60,124 nucleotides of DNA, from IMG/VR virus record IMGVR_UViG_3300033388_004729, positions 1-60,124 of that record; one strand, given 5' to 3'. Under the pieces are notes generated by a model, which saw only the letters and a program-made list of their open reading frames with translations, was not told where the DNA came from and did no database searches. The DNA comes from a virus. Its lineage: Duplodnaviria; Caudoviricetes. Shown here one piece after another: positions 2,563 through 60,124 of the stretch. The position numbers and the translations under genes were made by a program. Positions within the stretch are counted from its first letter, which is position 1. The number at the start of each line of letters is the position of its first letter.

Positions 2563-3414
2563 TTAGTTTTCGTGAGACGCCAGAATGTTAGTAAGGTGTA
2601 ATTCCCAATATTCTCGGCGATGATTGGTTTTCATATGACAGCTTTGACAAAGAGGAACTAGTTTCCATGTTTCACCTTTACAACCTTGTGTTTTAGAATA
2701 ATCAATATGATGAATTGATAATTTCTTGCCATTCTCTTCAGCACCACACATAACACATTTCCTATTGAATTTATTACGAACACGTTCTTTTAATTCATTG
2801 TTGAATTTTATACAGTATGGTTCAAACGACAAACCACCTTTCCAAGCAGGATTGTTTTTACCAATATATTTACCTTTATGTGATTCAGACATCTTTCGTT
2901 TAGATTCTTCTGTGTGGTTGCGCCCAAACATTGGATTGTTTTCACCTTTGGTAGCATTAGATACTTTCGTTTTAGATTCGTCTGAAAGTGTTTTACCAGT
3001 ATTAGATTCTGATAATTTTCGTTTATGTTCCTCTGAAAACACTCTGCCTTTCATAGATTTGGACATGTTTAATTTGTGTTCATCTGAAAATTTTTTACCT
3101 TTGTTAGATTCAGATATTTTTTGTGACCTATTGTGTTTTTTTTCATCTGACATATTTTTCAGTGATGTGGATATCTTGTGTTTGTGTTCATCTGAATGTT
3201 TTATACCTTTTCGAACGTTTGACAGATTTAATTTATGTGTATCTGAAAACTTTTTACCGATGTTTTGATGACCATGGATATATTTTGGAATGCCATGTGA
3301 TGGAGTATGGTGACATTTTAGTATTGTTATTTCTCCACCGCAGCCACAACGACAAAAATGCTTGCCTTGCTCTTGTATTATCCAATCATCAACAGTCATA
3401 TAAATCAATATCAT
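2563..3414 (-). CDS. NUMOD3-repeat HNH homing endonuclease
   Basis: Repeated K(F/H)S(D/E)EHK..S motifs, GENNPMFG; C-terminal CVMC...IHHIDY...LCQSCH..N HNH; probable start at MTVDD. Confidence 0.85.
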   Translation of the reverse strand: MILIYMTVDDWIIQEQGKHFCRCGCGGEITILKCHHTPSHGIPKYIHGHQNIGKKFSDTHKLNLSNVRKGIKHSDEHKHKISTSLKNMSDEKKHNRSQKISESNKGKKFSDEHKLNMSKSMKGRVFSEEHKRKLSESNTGKTLSDESKTKVSNATKGENNPMFGRNHTEESKRKMSESHKGKYIGKNNPAWKGGLSFEPYCIKFNNELKERVRNKFNRKCVMCGAEENGKKLSIHHIDYSKTQGCKGETWKLVPLCQSCHMKTNHRREYWELHLTNILASHEN

Positions 3415-3417
3415 ATT

Positions 3418-3525
3418 TCACTGATATTTAATATGCATTCCAATACACATCAATATCCCCATGACAAATGCAAACAACAAAAATCCCCCACATACAAACC
3501 AGACAATTTTATCAGCTAAATCCAT
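3418..3525 (-). CDS. 35-aa hydrophobic peptide (copy 1)
   Basis: MDLADKIVWFVCGGFLLFAFVMGILMCIG; paralog of 4217..4315. Confidence 0.6.
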   Translation of the reverse strand: MDLADKIVWFVCGGFLLFAFVMGILMCIGMHIKYQ

Positions 3526-3672
3526 TAGATTACACCATATCATATTCTCTTATTGCATGAAGTACAATATCATGCCAATTCATATTATGGTTTTCTTTGA
3601 TCGTTTTCATTTCTGTAAATTCTTCATTGGTGAATTTTTCGTTTATACTTTGCATTATAACACCTTACTCAC

Positions 3673-3797: not shown

Positions 3798-4220
3798 TCA
3801 CCTTTTGGAATCCTGTTTAAAAATAACAATCATGCTGTCATGCATTCCACATTTGTTAGATACTCTTTCTCCAAATGTATTGATTCCCTCAAATTTCACT
3901 CTCCCTTTCAAGAATCGTATTTCCGCATTATGATATATTACCTCATGAAATATCTTTGTAGACGTGGAAACGGGCAATAGCATCACACAAAGCTTGCCTT
4001 TTTTACTTTCATCAAATGCTTTTCTGATAAATGCCTCTTTTAATTTCCTTGAATATGGTGGATTGATGAAATTCCTATCTTTCCATTCAATTTGAAGACC
4101 GTCGAAGTCCGAATGTAAAGGACACGGATCAAAATCAAAGTTAAATTCTCTATTTAGTTTATCATATAACCATTTTGGTGTTTTCCAATCATCCTTATGG
4201 TTTAGATTTCTATTTTTCAT
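3798..4220 (-). CDS. phage-type DNA N6-adenine methyltransferase
   Basis: DDWKTP, FDFDPC, catalytic FINPPY, VMLLPVST, IRFLKGRVKF; start at MKNRN overlapping the upstream TGA. Confidence 0.88.
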   Translation of the reverse strand: MKNRNLNHKDDWKTPKWLYDKLNREFNFDFDPCPLHSDFDGLQIEWKDRNFINPPYSRKLKEAFIRKAFDESKKGKLCVMLLPVSTSTKIFHEVIYHNAEIRFLKGRVKFEGINTFGERVSNKCGMHDSMIVIFKQDSKR

Positions 4221-4315
4221 GATGATACTCCAATACACATCAATATTCCGATACCAAATGCAAACAATAAATAACACGCGCAAATAAACCAGACAATTTT
4301 ATCACTTAAATCCAT
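4217..4315 (-). CDS. 32-aa hydrophobic peptide (copy 2)
   Basis: MDLSDKIVWFICACYLLFAFGIGILMCIG; ATGA overlap with the methylase. Confidence 0.6.
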   Translation of the reverse strand: MDLSDKIVWFICACYLLFAFGIGILMCIGVSS

Positions 4316-4955
4316 TATATCACACCTCCTGTTTTATGATTCGTCTTTGTGATCCCCTACACACATCCTGCCGTTATAGTTTCCACAATTTCTGCATTCT
4401 TTCATGATATTACACCCGCCTGAGATTATAATGTTTCCACATTGAACAGTTTTTTGACTTTAGGTAATCCACACATTTCATTTTAGTTTCGGTTGCTACC
4501 ACACATGTATCCCAATATTCACACTTTTCAGGATAATAATTCATGTTCATTCCACCTTCTCGATCCAGACGTTTACTCGGTCGCCCGGCTCGATGTCGTT
4601 GTATTTACAGTGTTTAAGGATTGCAAGTCGGTACCCTTTTTGTATTTTGCATTCACCGCAGTTTATTATTGGCATTATTATTTATCTCCATATAGTCTTT
4701 CTGCAAATTCAGTTACATATTTATAAGCATTTTCGCTTGGTGGTTTATCTATGAATTGCCTGTTTTTTATCAATGCATGTAGGAAATTAGATACCCATGC
4801 TAGTTCTAATGTATTTAGTTTATTAAGTTGTATCATGATTCATCAGCAACCCCGTCCTCTCTTGACATTCAAATGCTTCAGATGCCAAGCAGTATCCATT
4901 TTGATTATATTTACATTCCCGTACATCACATATTATTAGAGAATTCATGCTCTTA

Positions 4956-5141
4956 TCACCGCCTATCCTTCACTCTTCTAACATCAAACATTGCAGATTC
5001 AATCGCTTCAGTAATCGCATCATAATGATCTATTCTCATGCTGCCATAAACTTGCCAGAATAGCGTAGATAATTGTTCTCGATTTAATTTCACAATTTCA
5101 TTTCTAAGTATATCATCCATATTAGGTATAGTATCTTTCAT
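4956..5141 (-). CDS. hypothetical protein
   Basis: 61-aa ORF with GAGGTGA RBS. Confidence 0.55.
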   Translation of the reverse strand: MKDTIPNMDDILRNEIVKLNREQLSTLFWQVYGSMRIDHYDAITEAIESAMFDVRRVKDRR

Positions 5142-5288
5142 AATTTCACCTCGTCTCTTATATTACCTGGCACACAGACATAATCTGGACAGCATCTGTA
5201 TCCAACGCAGCACCCATTATAAAAAATGGAATTTTTATTTTCACAGTATATTATTTGTTTATAGATATGGTCATATCGGCACTTCACG

Positions 5289-5483
5289 TTATTTCACCAC
5301 CACACCAGATTTATCTCGGACTGCCGGCAGGTCACTTGATCCGAACAACAGCACACACATCTGGTCAAGCTTTACCTGGAGTTGTGCATAGTCGGGGGGC
5401 GCCTCTGTCTTCCCTACGCCCTTCGCGGATTCAAGCGCAGATACCCGGGTGTTAATCTCCTCGATTTTAGTAGCCATGCACAT
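5289..5483 (-). CDS. hypothetical coiled-coil protein
   Basis: 64-aa ORF coupled to 5483..5671. Confidence 0.45.
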   Translation of the reverse strand: MCMATKIEEINTRVSALESAKGVGKTEAPPDYAQLQVKLDQMCVLLFGSSDLPAVRDKSGVVVK

Positions 5484-5744: not shown

Positions 5745-6095
5745 TCATGTTTCGTGCCCTTCTTTTATGATATCATATATTTTATGCACCTGTTCTGATG
5801 TTAAAGTCCTTGCGTCGATTGCGTTAATTGAATGTGCAAGTTTATTGAAATGTGCTTTTGCCACCATTTTGTCTTCAAGTTCTTGCGTCCACTTTTGAAG
5901 ATGTTTACTGGTCCACGAATCAATCTTGCAGCATCCATCTCGATACAGCGAACCACCAGTTGTTCTAACGTGTCCTTTTGGTGTGATTTTCTTCACTGTT
6001 GTTAGTTGTAATCCACCACTGAAGCCGGTAGATATATACACTTTATCGCCAGCACGAAGTTGTTTTATCCATTCATCCATCATTATTTTCACCAC
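5745..6095 (-). CDS. hypothetical SH3-like viral protein
   Basis: LRAGDKVYI...VKKITPKG pattern common in small phage proteins. Confidence 0.55.
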   Translation of the reverse strand: MVKIMMDEWIKQLRAGDKVYISTGFSGGLQLTTVKKITPKGHVRTTGGSLYRDGCCKIDSWTSKHLQKWTQELEDKMVAKAHFNKLAHSINAIDARTLTSEQVHKIYDIIKEGHET

Positions 6096-12393: not shown

Positions 12394-12634
12394 CGGCTGT
12401 ATTACCTCAGCAGATAGTATCGAAGGTAGGTACCAGTCCGAAGTAAACCCCCATGATTATTTAGAACTCCGAAATGACGGATCGTATGTGGTCGTACAGG
12501 ACAATGCATTTGGCGGACTCTACACAGTTGCAGACAATACTATAATACTTACACATACCTTCGGTTCTTTTGTATTGGTGTTTGATGGTGCCGATCTCAT
12601 TGACCTTGACGGCGAGCGATGGGTAAAGGTATAA
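12341..12634 (+). CDS. lipoprotein (lipocalin-like beta protein)
   Basis: MIKYSLAIVMLLMATGISGC lipobox; IEGRY...LELRNDGSY. Confidence 0.65.
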   Translation: MIKYSLAIVMLLMATGISGCITSADSIEGRYQSEVNPHDYLELRNDGSYVVVQDNAFGGLYTVADNTIILTHTFGSFVLVFDGADLIDLDGERWVKV

Positions 12635-12703
12635 GTCTTACTTTTTACGAATAAATAATATTATATACTATTAAGTGGTATTGTATATTCGGTGAATTGA
12701 ATG
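12515..12703 (+). repeat. 189-bp direct repeat, copy 1
   Basis: Nearly identical to 13505..13693; spans the lipoprotein 3' end, a TATA promoter, RBS and ATG. Confidence 0.92.
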
Positions 12704-13434: not shown

Positions 13435-13535
13435 CACACGAATCAATCGCAGATGAATCCGAACTTGCAGAACGAATAAGTAACCTGATACACGTCCAGC
13501 AGGTGGACTCTACACAGTCGCAGACAATACTGTAA
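13431..13535 (+). pseudogene. chimeric ORF: AbrB-gene 5' end fused out of frame to the lipoprotein 3' end
   Basis: MTHESIADESELAERISNLIHVQQ matches the N-terminus of 13867..14076, then the sequence joins repeat copy 2. Confidence 0.7.
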
Positions 13536-13693
13536 TACTTACACATACCTTCGGTTCTTTTGTATTGGTGTTTGATGGTGCCGATCTCATTGACCTTGAC
13601 GGCGAGCGATGGGTTAAAGTATAAGTCTTACTTTTTACGAATAAATAATATTATATACTATTAAGTGGTATTGTATATTTGGTGAATTGAATG
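13505..13693 (+). repeat. 189-bp direct repeat, copy 2
   Basis: Nearly identical to 12515..12703, offset 990 bp. Confidence 0.92.
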
Positions 13694-41026: not shown

Positions 41027-41675
41027 ATCCGCCCGGGATCGGAAGAAATGTGCTGATAAAATACGCAAATCCATTGTTAAATATGAAAATGATAAGATTC
41101 CACTCACAAAAATGGTGAAAGTAATTGAAGATTGTGGAATTGATTCTGAAAACTGGACACTCGATGAACAGCATAAACTAATGAAGTTTATTGACCAAAA
41201 CAAAATGTTTGTACATAGGAGATATGACGATGGTGACAATTCTACTCGATTCAAAGGTTTTACACATAATCCGACCCACACAGCAAAAGGGCGGTTTTTC
41301 CAGAATACAATTAAAAATACTATCCGTAAAGCACTACATCTTGCCGACTGGTATATTGTGAATAAGTATGATAAGGATGCATACGTTTATGATGACCTCC
41401 GGCTCAAAGGCATTGATGATTTTATGAATCAATATATTGATGATAAATTTCAACATGCAGAATATAAACTAGAGATCATGCACCAGGTCAGGCACATATT
41501 CTGTTTTATGATTAAAGAAGATCCATATTATACTTCGGTTGCATATGATTTCTTTAATCAGTTTATTAAGAAATATCCTACTGGTTTCACACTCACTAAA
41601 GAGGAGCAGTATAATTTTGACATGTGGCATACTGGAACATTTGAAGAGATTCAAGAGAAATATAAAAATCGATGA
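41004..41675 (+). CDS. conserved hypothetical protein (paralog of 26593..27216)
   Basis: Shared KGxxFQ, VYDDxRL and FMxKED motifs. Confidence 0.7.
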   Translation: MVPHMKDKSARDRKKCADKIRKSIVKYENDKIPLTKMVKVIEDCGIDSENWTLDEQHKLMKFIDQNKMFVHRRYDDGDNSTRFKGFTHNPTHTAKGRFFQNTIKNTIRKALHLADWYIVNKYDKDAYVYDDLRLKGIDDFMNQYIDDKFQHAEYKLEIMHQVRHIFCFMIKEDPYYTSVAYDFFNQFIKKYPTGFTLTKEEQYNFDMWHTGTFEEIQEKYKNR

Positions 41676-41685
41676 GGTATATTTA

Positions 41686-42168
41686 ATGACAACAGACACA
41701 GAATATGATAATGGAATGTCACACGAAGTATTATCTGTGCGACATTATAAAGCAGGATATGAAGTGCGAACTGAAATATGTACAATTGAATCCGACCCAA
41801 GTATGCCAGTGACTATGAAATCTGCTTATAATAAGAATGGAGATTACATCGGCAATTCAAAAGCTGCATATCAAATCTGCCAAACACGCGGTATAATGCC
41901 CGAACCAATGAATGACAAAAGCCATATATGTTCAATTGGATTCTGTGAGAATGAACATAAATGGTACGGCTGGTCACATCGTGCAATGTATGGTTTTGGA
42001 ATTGGAGATATAGTAAAAGAAGGTGATTGCACAAATTCGTCAGGGTATATTGAGGAATATATTGATCAACATCCAGAATGTGATTTGAGTTTGCCTATAG
42101 GGTTTGAAGCGAAAACACTTAATGATGCAAAAAGAATGGCAATTGCGTTTGCCGATTCGGTAGGGTAA
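41686..42168 (+). CDS. conserved viral hypothetical protein
   Basis: CSIGF..E.KWYGWSHRA.YGF.IG...AK.MA..FA.SV; start at MTTDT after GAGG. Confidence 0.65.
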   Translation: MTTDTEYDNGMSHEVLSVRHYKAGYEVRTEICTIESDPSMPVTMKSAYNKNGDYIGNSKAAYQICQTRGIMPEPMNDKSHICSIGFCENEHKWYGWSHRAMYGFGIGDIVKEGDCTNSSGYIEEYIDQHPECDLSLPIGFEAKTLNDAKRMAIAFADSVG

Positions 42169-44341: not shown

Positions 44342-44437
44342 CTAATTTAATATAAACGCAAAACTAATAGCTGTTGCGATTAATATCGCAGACCAACATC
44401 CACTAAAACAAGGATTGAAACTTCATAATACCCATAT

Positions 44438-46779: not shown

Positions 46780-48078
46780 TTATCCACAATTCATGGTTTT
46801 TATATATTCAATTGCTTCTGTTCTTGATGTTATTATCCTATCAAGTTGAAGATTTTCTACTTTGGTTATGATTTTAGATATTATTGGACCGGGCGGAATC
46901 CCCAATGCCATAACATCGTGCCCTGTTATCAATCGCTCGTTTGTTCCTTTTATTTCGGCGTGTGTGCAAGAGTTTATATATTCTAATATTTTAGTTGGCA
47001 ATGTAGTTTTTACCATACTGTCCGCTTTCAACAATTCTAATAATTCATAGAACAACGGCTCCTGAATCAAACGTATCTTTTTTGCATTTCTTAATTCATC
47101 AAATCTATGGATTATCATGTGGTTTGCTACCAACCACGAAACATTACTTACAACACTTTTCTGGAATTTCAGTCTTTTTAATATTTCATTGGCCATTTTG
47201 CACCCCACTACTTCATGTCCACTAAAATGATAATTGTCCCATGTGGGTGGCTTGCCAACATCATGAAGCAAGGTTGCTAATCTAAGCTCCAATGACGCTT
47301 CTTTAGGCAATGATGATAAAGCAATCAATGTGTGTTCATATATGTCCTTTTCTGGATGATATTTGTGCGAACCCGCTTTAAGATTCTTCATTGCTTCTAT
47401 TTCAGGAATTATTTTATATAACAATCCTGTTTTATCAAGAAGTTCAAAACCACGAATATTATACTCGGACATTAATATTTTTACAAACTCGTTGCGTATC
47501 CTTTCATTAGATATTCTAGCAAGGTTTTGTGTTTGTATTTCATCCAATACACGTTTTTTTATCTTGAAATCAAGAACAGTTGCAAGGCGTACTGCCCTAA
47601 CGATTCTTAATTTATCCTCATCAAATCGCAACTTTGGATCCCCTACGGTATCGATCCAACCATATTTAATATCCTCTTCACCACCAAACATATCAATTAA
47701 TATCATTTTAGAATTCATTGCCATTGCATTAATTTTAAAGTCGCGTCTTGACAAATCTTCTTTTATATTATCTGAAAATACTACATCACAATGCCTGCCA
47801 TCACAATTTATATCCCTTCTATATGTCGTTATTTCAAAACACTTATTTTCAATCACAACTGTAACAGTTCCATGCGATACCCCTGTAGGAATGACTTTAT
47901 CAAACAATTTCATAACCATTCCAGGTCGTGCGTTTGTTGCAAAATCAAAATCGGTTGGTGGTTTATTTAGCAATAAATCCCGAACTGCTCCACCAACCAA
48001 AAAACATTCAAATCCTGCATGTTCAAGTGTTGTAAATATATGCTTTATATTCCTATCTACAAGACACATACAAATCAT
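46780..48078 (-). CDS. class II CCA tRNA nucleotidyltransferase / poly(A) polymerase with HD domain
   Basis: LVGGAVRD, DFDFAT, EITTYR, DLSRRDFKINAM, RFDEDKLR, ISNERI..E, H...LLHDVGK. Confidence 0.9.
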   Translation of the reverse strand: MICMCLVDRNIKHIFTTLEHAGFECFLVGGAVRDLLLNKPPTDFDFATNARPGMVMKLFDKVIPTGVSHGTVTVVIENKCFEITTYRRDINCDGRHCDVVFSDNIKEDLSRRDFKINAMAMNSKMILIDMFGGEEDIKYGWIDTVGDPKLRFDEDKLRIVRAVRLATVLDFKIKKRVLDEIQTQNLARISNERIRNEFVKILMSEYNIRGFELLDKTGLLYKIIPEIEAMKNLKAGSHKYHPEKDIYEHTLIALSSLPKEASLELRLATLLHDVGKPPTWDNYHFSGHEVVGCKMANEILKRLKFQKSVVSNVSWLVANHMIIHRFDELRNAKKIRLIQEPLFYELLELLKADSMVKTTLPTKILEYINSCTHAEIKGTNERLITGHDVMALGIPPGPIISKIITKVENLQLDRIITSRTEAIEYIKTMNCG

Positions 48079-52427: not shown

Positions 52428-52688
52428 TCATTCGACCGCCTCATATGTCTCAAGGAATATATCATTCTTGATTGGATATAATTCACCGTGGACTCCTTTG
52501 ATTACCCAATCGGTTACATTCGCTTTCATATTCCCTTCATGTGTGGGGATATTCAAGTGTACATAACATGTATTGGTTAATATTGTCCGTCCAGAGAAAT
52601 CTATTATTTCTTTCTTGTTGTCTCCGGTGTACTGCACCGCTTCAATTACTACCGGTTTCTTTCTATATTTGTTCATTTTATTCACCAT
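52428..52688 (-). CDS. conserved phage protein (KKPVVIEAVQ family)
   Basis: YRKKPVVIEAVQYTG...IPT.EG.M.A...DWVIKG..GE.YP.K.DIF..TYE. Confidence 0.8.
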   Translation of the reverse strand: MVNKMNKYRKKPVVIEAVQYTGDNKKEIIDFSGRTILTNTCYVHLNIPTHEGNMKANVTDWVIKGVHGELYPIKNDIFLETYEAVE

Positions 52689-53034
52689 TCTTTATCTGAG
52701 CCGATTCTAAGCCAATATTAGTATAATTGGTATATGCACCTACCTTATGCACCGTTCGCGGCGTGAGCCAGGCCTGCACCATCACAGCGACGCATTCAGA
52801 GCGCAGTTTGCTATACTCTCCGACAGATGATTTGGTAGCAGGAGTAAATGTAATCGCATTGTTGATTGTGCATCCAGGGTGATCCTGATAATATCCGTGA
52901 ATATCTAACAGGCGCCGCATGTGTTCAAGCCCCTCTGTGGTGTGGGTTCGTGATGTGGGTTTTGTTCTCATAACATACACCTCACCATGCATCGTAATTC
53001 TTCGCACACCTTGCGCAGACCCAGTGATCCCCAT
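52678..53034 (-). CDS. hypothetical protein
   Basis: ORF in co-oriented run. Confidence 0.45.
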   Translation of the reverse strand: MGITGSAQGVRRITMHGEVYVMRTKPTSRTHTTEGLEHMRRLLDIHGYYQDHPGCTINNAITFTPATKSSVGEYSKLRSECVAVMVQAWLTPRTVHKVGAYTNYTNIGLESAQIKNGE

Positions 53035-54488: not shown

Positions 54489-56477
54489 TTAAACACATCT
54501 CAGACATCCACCACTTGGCTCAAAAATTGCACCTTCTTTCTTCATATGTTTAATAGTATGCTCTAATTCTTCTGCTGTCATACCTTGATCATCCACTCGA
54601 ATTGCTATGTCAGCATATTTAACCGGGCCATCTTTTTGTAATTCTTTAATAATATCCCTTATAAGTTTTGCTTTATCACGCTGACTTTTTGAAATGCCAG
54701 TTTCTACTATTGATGAATCTAACTCCCCGGATTCGTCTAAACTGGTTTCTCGCATAGATGCATCAATTAGTTTAATGGCTCGTTCTGCATCAACTACATC
54801 AGCAGTATTAGATAATCTTAGTTTAGCCTCAGATCGGGTCAATCGGATAAGTGCCTCTAAATTTCTCGTGGTTATGCTGACCACGTCATCAGACGGATTA
54901 TACCCCCCCCTTAAACCAAGATAGTAAGATTTGATTTTATCTAATGCTCTAGGTAATAACTCAACATCCTTAATTTGTCGTGCGATTGAAATATACTTAC
55001 GAATGATATCTATTTGGTTAATATCAACAGTATGATTATTACTCCAGGCACCAACAAGAATATCGGTTATTTTCTCATCAATTTTAGGTGTTGGAGTATC
55101 AAACATTGTAAATATCAAATCAAATCGACTTAATGTATCAGGCCGAATATTTACCTGTTCTGAGATTGATTCAAATCTATCAAATCGCCCGGCCTTTGGA
55201 TTCATGGCACATAATACCGGACATCTCGCCCATAATGTACAATTTATCCCCGCTTTGTTGATATGAATTGTTGAAGATGATAATACCGTGTTTAGTTTTG
55301 GGACGTCTTCATCACGCATTTTATCAAGTTCGTCTATGATGGCTACGGACCGGTCTGATAATACTAATGACCCGGCTTCTAAGGACCACTTAGAACCATA
55401 GAAATCATCCCGTATCACAGCGGCTGTAAGGCCTGCCCGGGTTGACCCGTCGCCTGTGGCCAATTGTGACCGTGGGATTAATTGTTTTACATTTGCTAAA
55501 AGTGTAGACTTTGCAGTGGAAGGATCACCACAGATTAATACATGAGCATAGCCCCGCTGGATTGTCCCATCGGGGCGCAGTATATTTCCTCCTGATACCG
55601 CTGCAGCAAGAAGAGACTCCTTAATTATTTCATATCCATAAATTGATGATGCAAAGCCTTTAACTAATTCATCCACTACATTGTTTTTTTTAGACATTTC
55701 TATAATATGTCGATGGTCTTCATCGGTGATTTCAATGTCTGTTTCAGTATCATTAATATTTACATATCCACCCTCTAACATCATTTCAAATTGTGTGGTT
55801 TTCTGATTGTTATTTGTCTTTTGAAATGCTCTAAGTATGCCGGTGATAGTTACCCGATTACCTGGTAGGACCACACCTGTTATATCTCCATCGATTTGTA
55901 CGTCAATAGTCTGCGGCTGTTCGCCGCCATTAAGATCTTCGGGCGATTCCTGTAGTCGTAGTTTCTGAGTATCAACCATTTTAGAGGTACTCAGTAATAA
56001 TTTGAATGGCCCTTTTCGACCACACATTTCATTTTCACATTCCAAGGGTTCGGTGAATTTATAACCAACTTGGTGTATCTCAGTTACATAACTACATCGC
56101 TGGCATTCAAATTGTGCAATAGTTATCCGGGGCCACACCTCAGATATTTTTTGAACTAACCCAGATACTGTAATAAGTTTATTTATCTTTTCAGTTCTTA
56201 TATCTCGGACCCTCATTGGTTTTTCAATGCCTGAAATGCGAACCGTTGGATTCCAATTATCATCAATAGGCACCGGAATTGACATGTTTTTAAGTCCTTC
56301 ATCCAATTCAGATAATACTTTGTCTGGATCATCAAATAACAAATCCCACATTTCAATATTAAATTTACTGAATACCGTAGAATCTATATTCAGGCTCTTT
56401 TGTTCTGGCCACATCCTGGCCAAATCCAGGACATCATCCCAGTAATATATTTTGAAAAAGTCTTCAGCCCATTGCAT
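54489..56477 (-). CDS. mcm: MCM replicative helicase (archaeal type)
   Basis: Zn finger CQRC/CENEMC, LQESPE...GEQP, Walker A GDPSTAKS, LEAGSLVL, IDELDKM, NPK.GRF, arginine finger LSRFDLIF, TRNLE. Confidence 0.96.
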   Translation of the reverse strand: MQWAEDFFKIYYWDDVLDLARMWPEQKSLNIDSTVFSKFNIEMWDLLFDDPDKVLSELDEGLKNMSIPVPIDDNWNPTVRISGIEKPMRVRDIRTEKINKLITVSGLVQKISEVWPRITIAQFECQRCSYVTEIHQVGYKFTEPLECENEMCGRKGPFKLLLSTSKMVDTQKLRLQESPEDLNGGEQPQTIDVQIDGDITGVVLPGNRVTITGILRAFQKTNNNQKTTQFEMMLEGGYVNINDTETDIEITDEDHRHIIEMSKKNNVVDELVKGFASSIYGYEIIKESLLAAAVSGGNILRPDGTIQRGYAHVLICGDPSTAKSTLLANVKQLIPRSQLATGDGSTRAGLTAAVIRDDFYGSKWSLEAGSLVLSDRSVAIIDELDKMRDEDVPKLNTVLSSSTIHINKAGINCTLWARCPVLCAMNPKAGRFDRFESISEQVNIRPDTLSRFDLIFTMFDTPTPKIDEKITDILVGAWSNNHTVDINQIDIIRKYISIARQIKDVELLPRALDKIKSYYLGLRGGYNPSDDVVSITTRNLEALIRLTRSEAKLRLSNTADVVDAERAIKLIDASMRETSLDESGELDSSIVETGISKSQRDKAKLIRDIIKELQKDGPVKYADIAIRVDDQGMTAEELEHTIKHMKKEGAIFEPSGGCLRCV

Positions 56478-56487
56478 ATCAATAACC

Positions 56488-57156
56488 TCATTTGTCAGGA
56501 TATGTCAGAACCGTTATACCCTGTGATTCAAACGCTTCTTTAAATCGCAGGTCGGTTGTGAATAGATATAATTGTTCAGTGTGTAAATAATGTTTATATG
56601 TATTAAGTTGTCTAAGTGTTTCACCGAAGCTTTTTATTACAGGCTTAACTTCTATGTATGTTTTAGGGAACGGGTGATAATTGCTTAACTGAATATATTC
56701 CAAGTGTTCTAACCCATCTATCCAATTTATTTCAATGTCAGTATATCCAACTAAAAACCCATTCTTAGCAGTAATTGGGACTTCGGATTTAATTATTCCA
56801 ATTTCACCAATAAGCTTAGTAGCCGGGAGTAATAAATGAGCAATTGAGTCATACTCCAACTTTATTAATTTCCAATCATCATTTGACAGTAACCAATTAT
56901 ATCCTTCTGGCAGGGTCTTATAATTAATTAAATCGGCTTGTAAATTTGGGGCAGAAATAGAAGTTTGTCCCTTTTTAAAACAATCCACACTAATTGGTTC
57001 TATATATATTTTGCTGGGCTTTGGCAGTATATTAAGAACATTATCTTTATTCAACAACCACAAAACCATTTCATCGTGTTTTGGTGTAGATAATGTTTGA
57101 TCATCTAATTTCCACAACTTCTCAGTGGTAGTATATCGATCCTTTTGACCAGTCAT
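56488..57156 (-). CDS. PD-(D/E)xK nuclease-like protein
   Basis: SEVP...GYTDI...YIEVKP...LRQL..Y. Confidence 0.6.
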   Translation of the reverse strand: MTGQKDRYTTTEKLWKLDDQTLSTPKHDEMVLWLLNKDNVLNILPKPSKIYIEPISVDCFKKGQTSISAPNLQADLINYKTLPEGYNWLLSNDDWKLIKLEYDSIAHLLLPATKLIGEIGIIKSEVPITAKNGFLVGYTDIEINWIDGLEHLEYIQLSNYHPFPKTYIEVKPVIKSFGETLRQLNTYKHYLHTEQLYLFTTDLRFKEAFESQGITVLTYPDK

Positions 57157-57287
57157 TCTACCACAACCACGGTATTAAGTAGCAAGTCTTCGATTACATC
57201 ACTGACTGAATTTAACCCGTGTTGTGATTTATAGATTTTAATTTTCAAGTTAGACTTTTCACTAATATCTATCAAATGTTTAACCAT
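57153..57287 (-). CDS. 44-aa RHH-like regulator
   Basis: HLIDISE...KI..YK..HG..SVSDVIEDLL; ATGA overlap. Confidence 0.55.
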   Translation of the reverse strand: MVKHLIDISEKSNLKIKIYKSQHGLNSVSDVIEDLLLNTVVVVE

Positions 57288-57354
57288 ATAATAACTCCTT
57301 ATATTCGATAGTATATATTAGTATTAATAGTATATATAACCACCCCCTACTATA

Positions 57355-57471
57355 ATCACCGGGATTGCACCCATGCCATTTTGGCGACAGTCCACACCGA
57401 AGCCCATCGCCTATGTATTCGATATTGGTTTAGGAGGCGATGATAGAATCGGATTAATCTCATGTGTGATA
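57355..57471 (-). ncRNA. candidate structured RNA with tRNA-like 3' end
   Basis: ATCAC...GTGAT closing stem, CATCGCCT/AGGCGATG stem, GCCA-AAA-TGGC hairpin, GGG-TGCAAT-CCC T-arm-like hairpin. Confidence 0.3.
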
Positions 57472-57490
57472 CCAATATATAAAAATTGAA

Positions 57491-57542
57491 ATGCGCCGCC
57501 ATTTATGGCGGTGATGGTTACTTCGTATAGCACCCATGCATC
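57491..57542 (-). repeat. cassette-junction repeat R1 (terminal, truncated)
   Basis: GATGCATGGGTGCTATACGAAGTAAC...CGCCAT-AA-ATGGCG then T-rich tract. Confidence 0.7.
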
Positions 57543-57545
57543 GTT

Positions 57546-57734
57546 TTAATTCATACTATTAATTTGTGTTTGGGTGTTTTGTAGGTTTACATCACATTCA
57601 CAAACATATTGTATTTTATCTGTTATTTTAGAACTTCCACTCATACATTTTATATTTAGATTACAGACAAAAGGGCATGTGTTAAACCCGTTTGGTCCAA
57701 CGTCTGTATTTCTCATATCAATTTTAGATACCAT
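57546..57734 (-). CDS. cassette ORF, Cys-containing hypothetical
   Basis: 62 aa between R2 and R1, GAGG RBS. Confidence 0.55.
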   Translation of the reverse strand: MVSKIDMRNTDVGPNGFNTCPFVCNLNIKCMSGSSKITDKIQYVCECDVNLQNTQTQINSMN

Positions 57735-57753
57735 TTCTAATTACCTCATTTTT

Positions 57754-57833
57754 ATGCATCATCTTCGTCATGCACCCCCTTTCTAAAGGGGTGTTGGGCT
57801 GGCGTCCGTGACTTCGTATAGCACCGTGCGTAC
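57754..57833 (-). repeat. cassette-junction repeat R2
   Basis: GGTGCTATACGAAGTCAC...CACCCCTTT-AG-AAAGGGGGTG-CATGACGAAGATGATGCAT. Confidence 0.85.
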
Positions 57834-57945
57834 ACTATTATTCATCATCGAAACCATCACCATTATCAAGAGTAATCTGAACTTCTATCAATGCTCTTTC
57901 AACAGCCATTCTCTGTTTAACATTCAATCGACTACTACTTATTAA

Positions 57946-58022
57946 CGTCATGCTTCCGGCTTTTAACCTGGCGTTGGGTGGTCCGCTGCTGGCGCCCGTG
58001 ACTGAGCCAACACCTATGCATC
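57946..58022 (-). repeat. cassette-junction repeat R3
   Basis: GATGCATAGGTGTTGGCTCAGTCAC...GCATGACG; holds the stop codon of 58014..58364. Confidence 0.8.
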
Positions 58023-58364
58023 CTTTTTAAGTGCTTTCTTGACCGCAACATTAAAATCATCTATCGATTCAACAGCAGGAGCAACCATAAACGCACAATC
58101 ATCATATTCAATAAATAATGGGAGGTCTTTCCCAAAAAAATACGCTTTTGGTGTACTTAATTTCAAAACCATTTTTAATTTCAAGAAGTGTGGATAGTTT
58201 ACATCTAAAATATCATATTCAATTTCAGTACACTTTTCACACGACTTCAAGGCTATCTTGTGCCCCAAATCTTCAATTGACAGTGCCTTAATTATTGTAT
58301 TCATTTCATTAACAAAAACACCATGTTTCCGTTCATATTTTGGTATATATTCATCCATTCCCAT
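58014..58364 (-). CDS. cassette ORF, hypothetical (C-terminus resembles a sliding-clamp domain)
   Basis: FGKDLPL.IE....FMVAP; ends KDA-TAG inside R3. Confidence 0.6.
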   Translation of the reverse strand: MGMDEYIPKYERKHGVFVNEMNTIIKALSIEDLGHKIALKSCEKCTEIEYDILDVNYPHFLKLKMVLKLSTPKAYFFGKDLPLFIEYDDCAFMVAPAVESIDDFNVAVKKALKKDA

Positions 58365-58390
58365 TCTTAATCACATCTTTTAGTTATTTT

Positions 58391-58501
58391 TGTATCATCT
58401 CATTCATGCTCTCGGATTGATCCAGGAGTTTTTGCTCGCCCTGGCCGTCCTATGGACGAGTCAGGGACGCGCAAGTGACTTAGAGATAGCACCTATGCAT
58501 C
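58391..58501 (-). repeat. cassette-junction repeat R4
   Basis: GATGCATAGGTGCTATCTCTAAGTCAC-TTGC[hairpin]GCAA-AAA-[hairpin]-CATGAATGAGATGATACA. Confidence 0.88.
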
Positions 58502-58744
58502 GTTAATCGCATCATTCCAACATTCCAATGCCATTCGTACATTATCTTCATGAACACCACCATAGACATCTTCATAACGCATTCCGATTTTTTCAGTAGT
58601 TGGATCATATCCACATTCACATTCTACCCACACCTCACAACAATCTTCTGATACTTGTTGTGAATGTGCCTTAAATTTAGTATTATTTCCACACATGGGA
58701 CATTTAACAAACAAATCGTTATCTTTTAAATGATATTCTAACAT
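58493..58744 (-). CDS. cassette ORF, Lar-like Zn-finger protein
   Basis: CPMCG...VWVECECG...A...WN; ends NDA-TAG inside R4. Confidence 0.6.
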   Translation of the reverse strand: MLEYHLKDNDLFVKCPMCGNNTKFKAHSQQVSEDCCEVWVECECGYDPTTEKIGMRYEDVYGGVHEDNVRMALECWNDAINDA

Positions 58745-58762
58745 TTTTATACCTCTTATATT

Positions 58763-58865
58763 TCGTCATGCATCGTGGCTTTAGCCCGGTGTTTTTGCTG
58801 CACCTAGCCGCTTCGCAAAGCGTGTTAGGTTGCCGCAAGTGACTTAGAGCTAGCACCTATGCATC
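58763..58865 (-). repeat. cassette-junction repeat R5
   Basis: GATGCATAGGTGCTAGCTCTAAGTCAC-TTGC[ACCTA..CGCTT-TGCG-AAGCG..TAGGT]GCAA-AAA-CACC[hairpin]-CATGACGA. Confidence 0.88.
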
Positions 58866-59336
58866 CTTAAAGATTATATCACCACGATATCCTTTTTGAA
58901 ATACTAATACACATGTTTGCACCCGTGATCCAGGAAAAGCACTTCGTGGTAAATGTATTATTTTTTTCAGCCCCTTTGATATATATTTTTTTGTTCGCTT
59001 TTCTGAGTTAATCAAAGCCAGCCAAGGCAATAGTATAATAATATCGTCTGCAATGTTAAAGAATTCGTCTAACATCTTATATCCTTGTGTCATTGGAGTA
59101 AAGGGGGGATTTGCGACAATATAGTGATATCTTCCATGATAATATTTAATAAAATTATAAAAATCATCTGGTGCATCTATTATTGAATCTGGAAACTTAA
59201 GTTTAAGTGCCTTTACTAAATTACCAGCCCCTGGGGTTGGCTCTAATATAAACACCGGCTCATGCTCTATAAGGTCCATCATTAACTTACACACCCATTC
59301 AGGGGTTTGAAAATCTATATTATTTATATGCATCAT
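58857..59336 (-). CDS. cassette ORF, amino (N6-A/N4-C) DNA methyltransferase
   Basis: FQTP, ILEPTPGAGNL SAM motif, IVANPPF; starts in R6 (ATGATGCAT), ends KDA-TAG in R5. Confidence 0.85.
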   Translation of the reverse strand: MMHINNIDFQTPEWVCKLMMDLIEHEPVFILEPTPGAGNLVKALKLKFPDSIIDAPDDFYNFIKYYHGRYHYIVANPPFTPMTQGYKMLDEFFNIADDIIILLPWLALINSEKRTKKYISKGLKKIIHLPRSAFPGSRVQTCVLVFQKGYRGDIIFKDA

Positions 59337-59436
59337 CTCCGTTCATGCACCCCGATTTTATCGGGGTGTTTTTGCTCACGCTGGCCAGCTCTGCCGTGTC
59401 AGTGTTGTGCAAGTGACTTTATACGGCTCTATGATA
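59328..59436 (-). repeat. cassette-junction repeat R6
   Basis: AAAGTCAC-TTGC[hairpin]GCAA-AAA-CACCCCGAT-AAA-ATCGGGGTG-CATGAACGGAGATGATGCAT. Confidence 0.88.
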
Positions 59437-59694
59437 CCGACCCCTCATTAATGAACACGTTCAATTTTTATTTTTAAATTAACACCATTCCAACATGATA
59501 TTTCTTCTTCAATTTCTTTAATAATACCATCCGGTGTAGCTTTTACCTCATGAATAGTATATCTTCTACCTTTGCTTATAAGTACCACGTTTTAATCCTC
59601 CTTCACTTAATAGTGTCTCCAAGGTTAGCAAATCCTTTCTCCCACACCTGTTACACATTCCTGGTTTGTTTATCATTTATATCACTTCCATTTC

Positions 59695-59765
59695 ATGCAT
59701 CATTTCGCATGCCTCCGCTTTGTAAGCGGGGCCGCGGTTGACTTCCGTACCAACACCTATGCATC
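59695..59765 (-). repeat. cassette-junction repeat R7
   Basis: GATGCATAGGTGTTGGTACGGAAGTCAA...CCGCTT-ACA-AAGCGG..GCATGCGAAATGATGCAT; the upstream frame ends INDA-TAG. Confidence 0.8.
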
Positions 59766-60124
59766 GTTAATGATAAAAGTACATGATTCATGCCATTCTC
59801 CCGCATAATCTACATCATCATCAACTTCAACTACCAATGGACATCTAAATATTATTTGTCGATTATCAATTGATTCTACAAAATCGGAATATTTTTCACC
59901 ATTTATCTCACCTCTGTTTTATACTCCCTTTTTGCTTGGTTCGTATCGTTGATGTACACATATGTATCAATGAAGTTCCCCGCCGTCCTGCGCAGTATGA
60001 TTTGTGTGGGCGCTGGCCTCCTTGGCTCGATTGTTATGTGCATATCAGTCATGGTTCTATCCGATCATAACAGTGTATCCTGTCACCACATGTGTTGCAG
60101 TTATATTTGCTTCTGTCCTGGCAA

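Follow-up and report, generated by a model that had tools for sequence, protein, structure and literature searches.

A folded intercistronic element at sites of gene exchange in a few tailed viruses, probably archaeal, and in elements related to them

The DNA analysed here, called the window, is an entire IMG/VR virus record (IMGVR_UViG_3300033388_004729; G000 below), a linear stretch of 60,124 nucleotides (nt) that CheckV places at about 65% completeness. Close to its right end the minus strand, which carries nearly all of the genes, holds an array of seven copies of a repeated element set among small, unrelated open reading frames (ORFs). The element is a folded, modular unit under selection that occupies precisely the gaps between cistrons and at which gene content is exchanged. 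The reading that we favour, at a probability of roughly 0.45, is that it acts as an intercistronic structured regulatory module whose conserved boxes may double as recombination seams, much as the elements known as PeSLs (promoter-early stem-loop cassettes) do in T4-type phages.

The element, its copies and its carriers

A covariance model of the element (model R1) was seeded with 17 long-form copies, of which only R4-R6 come from the window. Searching the 60-kb window with this model gave exactly seven matches, all of them on the minus strand between positions 57466 and 59774 and co-oriented with the ORFs, and no further match elsewhere in the window at E<=0.01. Since copies R1, R2, R3 and R7 were absent from the seed, their detection is independent. 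A preliminary description of this DNA had proposed seven related minus-strand elements at this place, together with a consensus that we found to be correct on re-reading the copies. A repeat finder also picks out parts of the seven copies, and the pattern GTGACTN{5,25}ATGCAT occurs three times in the window against 0.26 expected, a number reached in none of 100 shuffles.

Relatives were located by exact-pattern scans followed by model R1, which together yielded 56 model matches in nine sources (54 copies of at least 60 nt and two fragments), the matches of each source lying on the strand of its array ORFs. Beyond the window, the sources are two other IMG/VR viruses, three separate contigs from metagenomes and, within a single archaeal metagenome-assembled genome (MAG), another three contigs, with arrays of 3 to 16 copies. 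One of the two viruses (G001) is complete, 63 kb long with direct terminal repeats, and has three copies; the other (G005, locus L026) is a viral contig of 18.6 kb with eight model matches and a degenerate ninth copy. The metagenome loci with the element are L040, L045 (which duplicates part of L040), L046 and L054. In the 1.3-Mb MAG 'archaeon isolate GLR112' (G004) there are 30 model matches, all on contigs C41 (15), C13 (6) and C172 (9); a sixteenth copy on C41 was seen by eye only. Contigs C172 and C13 share 127 identical bases (L072 4971-5097; L075 reverse strand 1-127) and hence belong to one element with about 15 copies. The model had no match elsewhere in the 1.3 Mb of this MAG, none in 60 relatives of it and none in the other 41 genomes of its phylum, two sets that overlap. 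As the matches in the MAG are confined to three contigs and none occurs in its relatives or phylum, the element belongs to a small family of viruses and mobile elements and not to the host chromosome.

Wider scans of viral contigs added no carriers. The box A pattern (see below) gave 18 loci, 17 of which were chance matches; a scan for the medium form gave another 18, one being the known L026 (as L031) and the other 17 new but with no covariance-model match; and a scan for the third P1 variant gave no locus. Two loci related through a membrane protein, L025 and L027, held no copies in the stretches examined.

Read in the direction of the genes, the element consists of box A, AGUCA(C), an optional hairpin P1, an AAAAC linker, a second hairpin P2, (G)CAUG and a 3' module (box B), and its divergent copies measure 85-135 nt. 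Box A has the consensus nGATGCATAGGTGCTAGCnCGA as well as a second, unrelated variant (GAGGGGTCGG..GAGCCGTA); it is asymmetric, keeps one orientation, contains the palindromes GTGCTAGCAC and ATGCAT, and is the least conserved module. Conservation is nearly complete for AGUCA (52-54 of 54 copies) and for CAUG (53-55 of 55). The long form of P1 is built of three helices with a 3x2 internal loop, in which the loop A is present in 34 of 35 copies and the loop C in 35 of 36; in some copies a GGGCGCC..CGCCC module or a third variant takes its place. P2 has 5-9 base pairs and a UGAA loop or an A-rich triloop or tetraloop. Directly 5' of it, GCAAAAAC is nearly invariant in the long forms, and the A5 run is absent from the short and medium forms, as in R1, R2, R3, R7 and numerous further copies. 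There are three alternative 3' modules (..GATGATGCAT, ..CTAAGATGGCACATGAATAATAAG and ..GACCCCTGTCTTTTTTT): two run on to the Shine-Dalgarno sequence and the start of the gene that follows, and the third is an oligo-T run.

The copies of the window and the frames around them, all on the minus strand and listed in the direction of the genes, are the following:

59757-59918, minus strand: open frame of 53 codons, ending ..INDA* in box A of R7
59686-59774, minus strand: copy R7 (E=5e-5, unseeded), short form with box A, AGUCAA, P2, CAUG and box B ATGATGCAT, no P1
59448-59676, minus strand: cassette between R7 and R6, two overlapping ORFs of 36 aa (59566-59676) and 46 aa (59448-59588)
59319-59447, minus strand: copy R6 (E=4e-23), long form with the variant box A (GAGGGGTCGG..GAGCCGTA..AAGTCAC), P1, P2 and box B
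58857-59336, minus strand: cassette ORF, N6-adenine DNA methyltransferase of 159 aa (PF02384, E=3.6e-7; phrog_799, E=6e-15)
58742-58874, minus strand: copy R5 (E=4e-23), long form, its TAG stopping the methylase ORF (..FKDA*)
58493-58744, minus strand: cassette ORF of 83 aa, cysteine-rich (zinc-ribbon-like), no family above cut-off
58381-58510, minus strand: copy R4 (E=2e-28), long form, its TAG stopping the 83-aa zinc-ribbon-like ORF (..INDA*)
58014-58364, minus strand: cassette ORF of 116 aa, no family found
57925-58031, minus strand: copy R3 (E=0.003, unseeded), medium form, its TAG stopping the 116-aa ORF (..KKDA*)
57745-57842, minus strand: copy R2 (E=5e-10, unseeded), medium form, box B ATGATGCAT
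57546-57734, minus strand: cassette ORF of 62 aa, cysteine-rich, no family found
57466-57551, minus strand: copy R1 (E=0.002, unseeded), last of the array, box A and one hairpin

In R3 the GGGCGCC..CGCCC module substitutes for the long P1, and in R1 an oligo-T run (57481-57485) inside the TATA-like TTTTTATATA occupies the place of box B. The placement of the element relative to its neighbours agrees with what had been described for the window: four frames end in GAT GCA TAG (KKDA at 58014, INDA at 58493, FKDA at 58857 and INDA at 59757), the methylase ORF starts within ATGATGCAT of the R6 box B, and ATGCAT stands at the left end of five of the seven copies and at the right end of three. The INDA frame at 59757-59918 has no ATG, GTG or TTG start that yields at least 30 aa. 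Over the whole family, stop codons are frequent in box A, and the upstream gene sometimes takes its stop from there. Every one of the three frames is stopped in 12 of 51 box A sequences, compared with 7% of shuffles, which is an enrichment and not a rule; the upstream ORF mostly stops a few bases ahead of box A, and only 5 copies end in GATGCATAG. The hexamer ATGCAT occurs in the 5' box of 18 of the 56 copies, in the 3' box of 21 and in both boxes of 7.

In 7 of 54 copies the hairpins are followed by a T-run; among these are the closing copies of the window and G001 arrays and some internal ones. A T-run also closes the C41 array after the sixteenth copy seen by eye. TATA-like strings were present only after such variants (e.g. 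R1 and the last G001 copy). The copies that have no T-run continue into the next ORF, and an SD-like (Shine-Dalgarno-like) 4-mer precedes 27 of 50 starts. No TATA or B recognition element (BRE) consensus was visible in the alignment of copies, the early-gene promoter motif of archaeal viruses being a BRE plus a TTTAWATA TATA box about 26 nt ahead of the transcript start, and between 57300 and 60124 we counted 14 promoter-like sites (11.7 expected), none of which recurs in the repeats. From this arrangement of signals we infer that the arrays form one or a few operons, in which most copies would be intercistronic.

Fold of the element and exchange of genes around it

The proposal that the stems differ in sequence while keeping their pairing was borne out in two alignments. 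In a MAFFT alignment of the 17 long forms, which was not fitted to the model, a hand-set structure was 84.8% paired, against 72.2% in shuffled and 34-41% in slid controls; the P1 helices were 96% and 100% paired, with compensatory changes on both sides in 9 of 15 pairs. Over the 56 model-aligned matches, an alignment that is fitted to the model and leans toward it, and whose related copies are not independent, 90.8% of cells were paired (63.9% when shuffled; 31-42% in slid controls) and changes on both sides were found in 22 of 23 pairs (262 cells). RNAalifold, run on a plain MAFFT alignment of all forms, returned no structure because the hairpins stand out of register there, and the long-form alignment with the hand-set structure was used instead.

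The fold supported by these data is that of two adjacent hairpins, P1 and P2. A closing helix between GTCA and TGAC had also been suggested; AGUCA never varies and UGAC follows CAUG in only 27 of 52 copies, leaving no covariation for such a helix. Pairing between ATGCAT ends (63% paired) is trivially self-complementary, gives no informative covariation and is not supported either.

No known RNA family accounts for the element, one of the points on which the preliminary description had made its proposal depend: Rfam returned no family over the elements in 57000-60124 at E<=10, none over the elements in the whole window and L018 at the gathering score, and none at E<=5 in L074 3000-12500, a stretch with 16 copies. 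Together with the strong covariation and the changed gene orders described below, this means that the element withstands the three conditions under which the preliminary description would have dropped its proposal. Readings as k-turn, bulge-helix-bulge, hammerhead-like or tRNA-like motifs were rejected by eye; ARAGORN detected no tRNA, and Rfam returned nothing for them. Another repeated motif, distinct from this element and potentially able to form a hairpin (AACCAAGCG..GGTGCAAG.CC..CTTGTGA), was seen in L026 at about 5240-5290 and 5860-5910, between the array and the helicase gene, with no match in Rfam.

The arrays are cassette-like, as first proposed. Successive copies are separated by 1-3 small unrelated ORFs, with a median spacing of 487 nt (range 189-2661 nt, 45 intervals). 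The cargo, of a kind common in the accessory regions of phages, comprises three families of DNA methyltransferase (N6_Mtase in the window, MT-A70 in G005, G001 and C13, and a C5 methylase in L040), an HNH endonuclease (G005), an NrdD-C-like protein and many cysteine-rich or zinc-ribbon ORFans. The array lies upstream of a replication helicase in every case. In the window this is a minichromosome maintenance (MCM) replicative helicase with an archaeal winged-helix domain, encoded on the minus strand at 54489-56477, just downstream of the repeats; C41 and G005 have a DUF927/Cch-type helicase in its place, and G005 is collinear with the window outside the array.

Relatives differ both in the ORFs that stand between the repeats and in the order of those ORFs. 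Shared genes, numbered, follow each other as 4,5,6,7,1,8 in C41 and as 7,5,1,2,6,4,8 in C172 and C13; the homologous genes keep 84-97% protein identity while being reordered, and two genes that overlap stop-to-start in one of these elements are 3 kb apart in the other. Copies may also resemble each other in different surroundings: R7 is 85% identical over 83 nt to copy h of L026, with unrelated ORFs on both sides, and R6 is 75% identical over 121 nt to a G001 copy that stands upstream of a different methylase family, both having the rare box A variant. The elements themselves are mosaic, in that near-identical P1 hairpins are joined to four different P2 hairpins; the P1 of R4 has 93% identity to copies in G001 and in the archaeal MAG.

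One unit, F6, illustrates a recent transfer. It comprises the hairpins, a 65-aa ORF and the next box A; over 376 nt the C41 and C13 versions share 95% identity, and their flanks are unrelated. Both of its ends fall within AAGTCAC, so that it runs through AGTCAC, P1, P2, box B and the ORF to the next box A, and in this single case (n=1) the hairpins travel with the downstream ORF. More generally, the boundaries of high-identity segments fall in clusters ahead of AGTCAC (29 of 45 left ends), at the linker between P1 and P2, after GCATG and at the end of box B, a clustering at invariant motifs that is partly an artefact of where identity resumes; other joints of similarity fall at several conserved linkers or ORF starts. 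Insertions, deletions and replacements between the relatives are located at the motifs, as they are for PeSLs. Breakpoints had been predicted at ATGCAT, and here the data point elsewhere: the only recent shared cassette is bounded by AAGTCAC, and the hexamer is rarely found at both ends. The string ATGATGCATAGG in L026 (about position 5126) was considered as the footprint of a deletion and discarded, the same string at C41 11866 being the TGA stop of an ORF plus box A.

Regulatory module, recombination site or mobile element

According to the reading that we favour, the repeats would be transcribed co-directionally as parts of operons. These would hold small early or accessory genes and precede the replication helicase gene in this limited set of uncultivated tailed viruses, probably archaeal, and of elements related to them. 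Box A would sometimes stop the upstream gene, and the 3' module would lead either to the next Shine-Dalgarno sequence and start or to an oligo-T terminator, so that the folded strand may act after transcription on each downstream cistron, through processing, end protection or translational insulation. The presence of the same boxes around every gene would let recombination between these boxes gain, lose, replace and reorder whole genes, and a dedicated integrase would apparently not be required. Such an element could be the archaeal-virus counterpart of the T4 PeSL cassettes, with covarying hairpins in place of promoter and terminator. The repeated cis-acting RNA motif that had been offered as an alternative in the preliminary description is compatible with all of the observations and forms part of this reading. 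Recombination between conserved boxes is in our view the simplest mechanism because the joints are scattered, sequence conservation is high and a complete genome lacks a recombinase.

Several observations weigh against it. In 42 of 45 copies it is the antisense strand that forms the more stable fold, and in every long form this strand reads as a hairpin followed by TTTTTGC. Pairs in the model are A.C or C.A in 44 cases and G.U or U.G in 15, an excess that falls mostly on outer P2 pairs forced by the alignment and on two invariant A/C juxtapositions, the counts inside P1 being about equal; the wobble-pair counts therefore do not assign the folded strand, and a folded single strand of DNA would yield covariation equally well. 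The single clean recent cassette transfer has both ends in the same 7-mer, as a site-specific crossover would give. In addition, a serine recombinase (PF00239, E=4e-28; L074 2804-3409) is encoded 140 nt upstream of the first C41 copy.

These last points would be explained by a dedicated site-specific, integron-like system in which the element, perhaps folded as single-stranded DNA, would be the recombination site, with its crossover at AAGTCAC and an enzyme that is unrecognised, host-encoded or the serine recombinase itself, a possibility that we consider unlikely but do not set aside. AGTCA is invariant, structure is kept while sequence varies, array length ranges from 3 to 16 copies across relatives, and the strand opposite to the ORFs, which is also the strand used by integrons with respect to their cassette ORFs, is the one that folds better. 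However, the serine recombinase next to the 15 copies of C41 is the only PF00239 match in the four records searched, and the complete G001, with three copies, has no match to PF00239, PF00589 or PF01797. No PF00589 tyrosine recombinase was found in G000 (65% complete), G001 or G005, and the single match in the MAG is on a different contig, C137; PF01797 (Y1 transposase) was absent from all four records, the MAG included, and 40 ORFs elsewhere in the window, scanned with Pfam, included no recombinase. Joints at the P1-P2 linker, after GCATG and at ORF starts, hairpins that move with the downstream ORF, and a sequence conservation far above the need of a purely structural site also speak against such a system, and the AAGTCAC-bounded unit is a single case. 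A particular form of this idea, which we hold to be decidedly unlikely, is an otherwise unknown cassette exchange of archaeal viruses, in which one strand, perhaps that opposite to the genes, would fold by itself and present AGTCA, and an unrecognised or host enzyme, or the C41 serine recombinase, would move units of leader hairpins plus ORF; if true, these viruses would possess an integron-like store of counter-defence genes.

The stability of the antisense strand can also be read as function of that strand: the long form would then be a P2' hairpin with a U5 tail, working as a polar terminator or insulator against antisense transcription into the early array, with shuffling as a by-product. 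Oligo-T is an archaeal termination signal, and the near-invariant GCAAAAAC makes of the plus strand a stem-loop followed by TTTTTGC, which a terminator scan flagged for R6. We regard this as quite improbable, however, since the short and medium forms do not have the A5 run, P1, box A, AGUCA and CAUG are left without a role, no plus-strand genes or promoters are known near the array, and the sense-strand loops include the tetraloop-like sequences UGAA and UGCG.

That the repeat might instead be a selfish, non-autonomous mobile element spread through intergenic gaps, with no function for the virus, is suggested by its many copies of variable length, by ATGCAT or GATGCAT at both ends of some of them and by its confinement to mobile-element contigs. 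All 56 matches are nonetheless co-oriented with genes and precisely placed between a stop and a Shine-Dalgarno sequence or start, terminal inverted repeats other than the double ATGCAT of those few copies are lacking, and compensatory changes indicate selection on the fold; with no Y1 transposase in the viruses or the MAG and no copies in the rest of the MAG or in the related genomes, we find this explanation very improbable. In the least probable of those considered, a viral repressor would bind box A as its DNA operator and so form a roadblock between genes comparable to a stoperator, with the hairpins secondary. Box A is indeed asymmetric and palindrome-bearing and overlaps stops, and in four relatives the arrays have a conserved AbrB-like gene as neighbour; no such gene was found in the window, box A varies more than any other module and has an unrelated second variant, and neither the covarying P1 and P2 nor the invariant CAUG would be explained.

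Membership in known families of repeats was examined as well. The attC core RYYYAAC was found in the first 35 nt of 1 of 54 copies and GTTRRRY in the last 35 nt of 1 of 54, no copy having both, which agrees with the initial statement that these are not canonical attC sites. An integron was rejected on account of the absent cores, the ends that do not pair, the hairpins associated with the downstream ORF and the lack of an adjacent IntI. The more specific suggestion of an integron-like capture system with crossover at ATGCAT is not supported: the hexamer is not family-wide, the cassette ends in AAGTCAC and the complete G001 has no serine, tyrosine or Y1 recombinase by Pfam profile. Miniature inverted-repeat or palindrome-associated transposable elements (MITE/PATE) derived from IS200-IS605 were discarded given the single orientation in each source, the absence of PF01797 and the double ATGCAT of only 7 of 56 copies, and a CRISPR array given divergent repeats of 85-135 nt and protein-coding intervals of 189-2661 nt. 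The element thus belongs to none of the integron, PeSL, MITE/PATE, CRISPR or Rfam groups, and its resemblance to them is functional only.

Genome context and comparison with known systems

The window encodes a large terminase, a tape-measure protein, tail and fibre-like proteins and a CCA-adding-type nucleotidyltransferase. The top GenBank matches of its MCM protein are tailed haloarchaeal viruses (33% identity over 99% of the length). As the MCM has an archaeal winged-helix domain and finds its best matches in these viruses, with the relatives of the repeat in an archaeal MAG as added support, the window is probably an archaeal tailed virus; the earlier label of archaeal virus can be kept as probable on these grounds. 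Used as a single-protein query, the MCM had no close relative among viral contigs, and blastn of the array against GenBank phages gave no match.

Some other features of the record are worth reporting. At 52678-53034 (minus strand) there is a small protein of unknown function, the sole ORF family common to four repeat-bearing genomes (window, G001, G005 and C41), in each of which it lies downstream of the helicase. An intergenic gap at 44385-44421 (plus strand) holds a solitary CRISPR-repeat-like sequence (Rfam CRISPR-DR7, 45.5 bits vs a gathering score of 37), with no second copy and absent from the MAG G004, G001 and G005; it could be a solitary repeat unit, act as an RNA anti-CRISPR or give a hint of the host. 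At 41539-42168 (plus strand) this otherwise archaeal-looking virus has a gene that strongly matches Tad6, an inhibitor of type I Thoeris (PF25188, E=3.7e-57). The gene at 46780-48078 (minus strand) encodes the head domain of a class II (bacterial-type) CCA-adding enzyme or poly(A) polymerase together with an HD domain, and may bear on the metabolism of viral RNA 3' ends. At the opposite end of the record, HNH plus NUMOD3 homing-type endonuclease and Dam-family methyltransferase genes lie at 2563-3414 and 3798-4283 (both minus strand), and near them is a 98-nt direct repeat, 84% identical, at 3439-3536 and 4229-4326. Another direct repeat, of 192 nt, with 97% identity and its copies 990 nt apart (12512-12703 and 13502-13693), is located in a plus-strand gene block.

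If the element works as RNA, its invariant AGUCA and CAUG and the internal loop of P1 would define a new class of structured RNA with an unknown protein or catalytic partner; if it works as DNA, it would be a new kind of recombination site. Model R1 offers a sequence and structure handle on the hypervariable accessory regions of these uncultivated viruses, and the methyltransferases and ORFans of the arrays are good candidates for counter-defence genes. A full-text search of the main texts of open papers in PMC and bioRxiv returned no description of this element. As far as our searches show, then, the element is new and its kind, repeat-mediated modular shuffling, is known; no structure-conserving punctuation element in multiple copies would have been described before from the genomes of archaeal viruses.

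Irregular hairpins between cistrons have a precedent in the early region of phage T7, where RNase III sites are related hairpins of this sort in a polycistronic early transcript; to our knowledge, RNase III is absent from most archaea. With integrons the element has in common co-oriented, promoter-less, unrelated small genes, sites of variable length with compensated structure, stop codons within the site and, for one cassette, ends marked by an invariant 7-mer. It differs in having no RYYYAAC/GTTRRRY cores, no single end-paired hairpin and no IntI, in a sequence that is much more conserved, in hairpins that go with the downstream and not the upstream ORF, and in a complete genome that has no known recombinase.

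Repeated non-coding sequences have been described in other viruses. One report on archaeal viruses describes highly similar non-coding sequence ahead of many small, dissimilar early or anti-defence genes (PMC11065993). The methyltransferase cargo found here fits such a counter-defence role, but the sequences treated there are BRE/TATA promoters plus an operator, one per gene, whereas ours are GC-rich, structured and inside operons. In halovirus HF2, another archaeal tailed virus with repeated intergenic sequences, the repeats of 29 or 58 bp are AT-rich promoters whose position is conserved within the genus (PMC8707807); the present element has no comparable AT-rich core and has covarying hairpins. 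Among mycobacteriophages, the SAS/ESAS repeats are given as 13-bp boxes with or without one 17-bp inverted repeat, which in ESAS lies upstream, and of unknown function (PMC3203893), and stoperators as repeats in intergenic gaps (PMC9283540). They resemble our element as asymmetric, one-orientation repeats tied to gene starts (SAS) or stops (stoperators), and differ from it in sequence and length and, as described there, in not being tied to cassette shuffling.

The likeness on which the favoured reading draws is that with PeSLs, which, in two papers on T4-type phages, start at the upstream stop codon and end at the downstream Shine-Dalgarno sequence and start, are concentrated in hyperplastic regions beside ORFans and mediate shuffling via recombination (PMC2839356; PMC4122927). 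Like them, the element described here is a composite stem-loop repeat that spans the intergenic gap from stop to Shine-Dalgarno sequence or start, among ORFans and auxiliary genes (nrdD is named in that work too), and genes are inserted, deleted and replaced at it between relatives. PeSLs are defined by a sigma-70 early promoter plus a terminator stem-loop, whereas here no promoter is evident, 47 of 54 copies are without a T-run, two covarying hairpins accompany the invariant AGUCA and CAUG, and the host is probably archaeal. Modular shuffling in the style of PeSLs would thus have an analogue, assembled from different parts, in another viral lineage.

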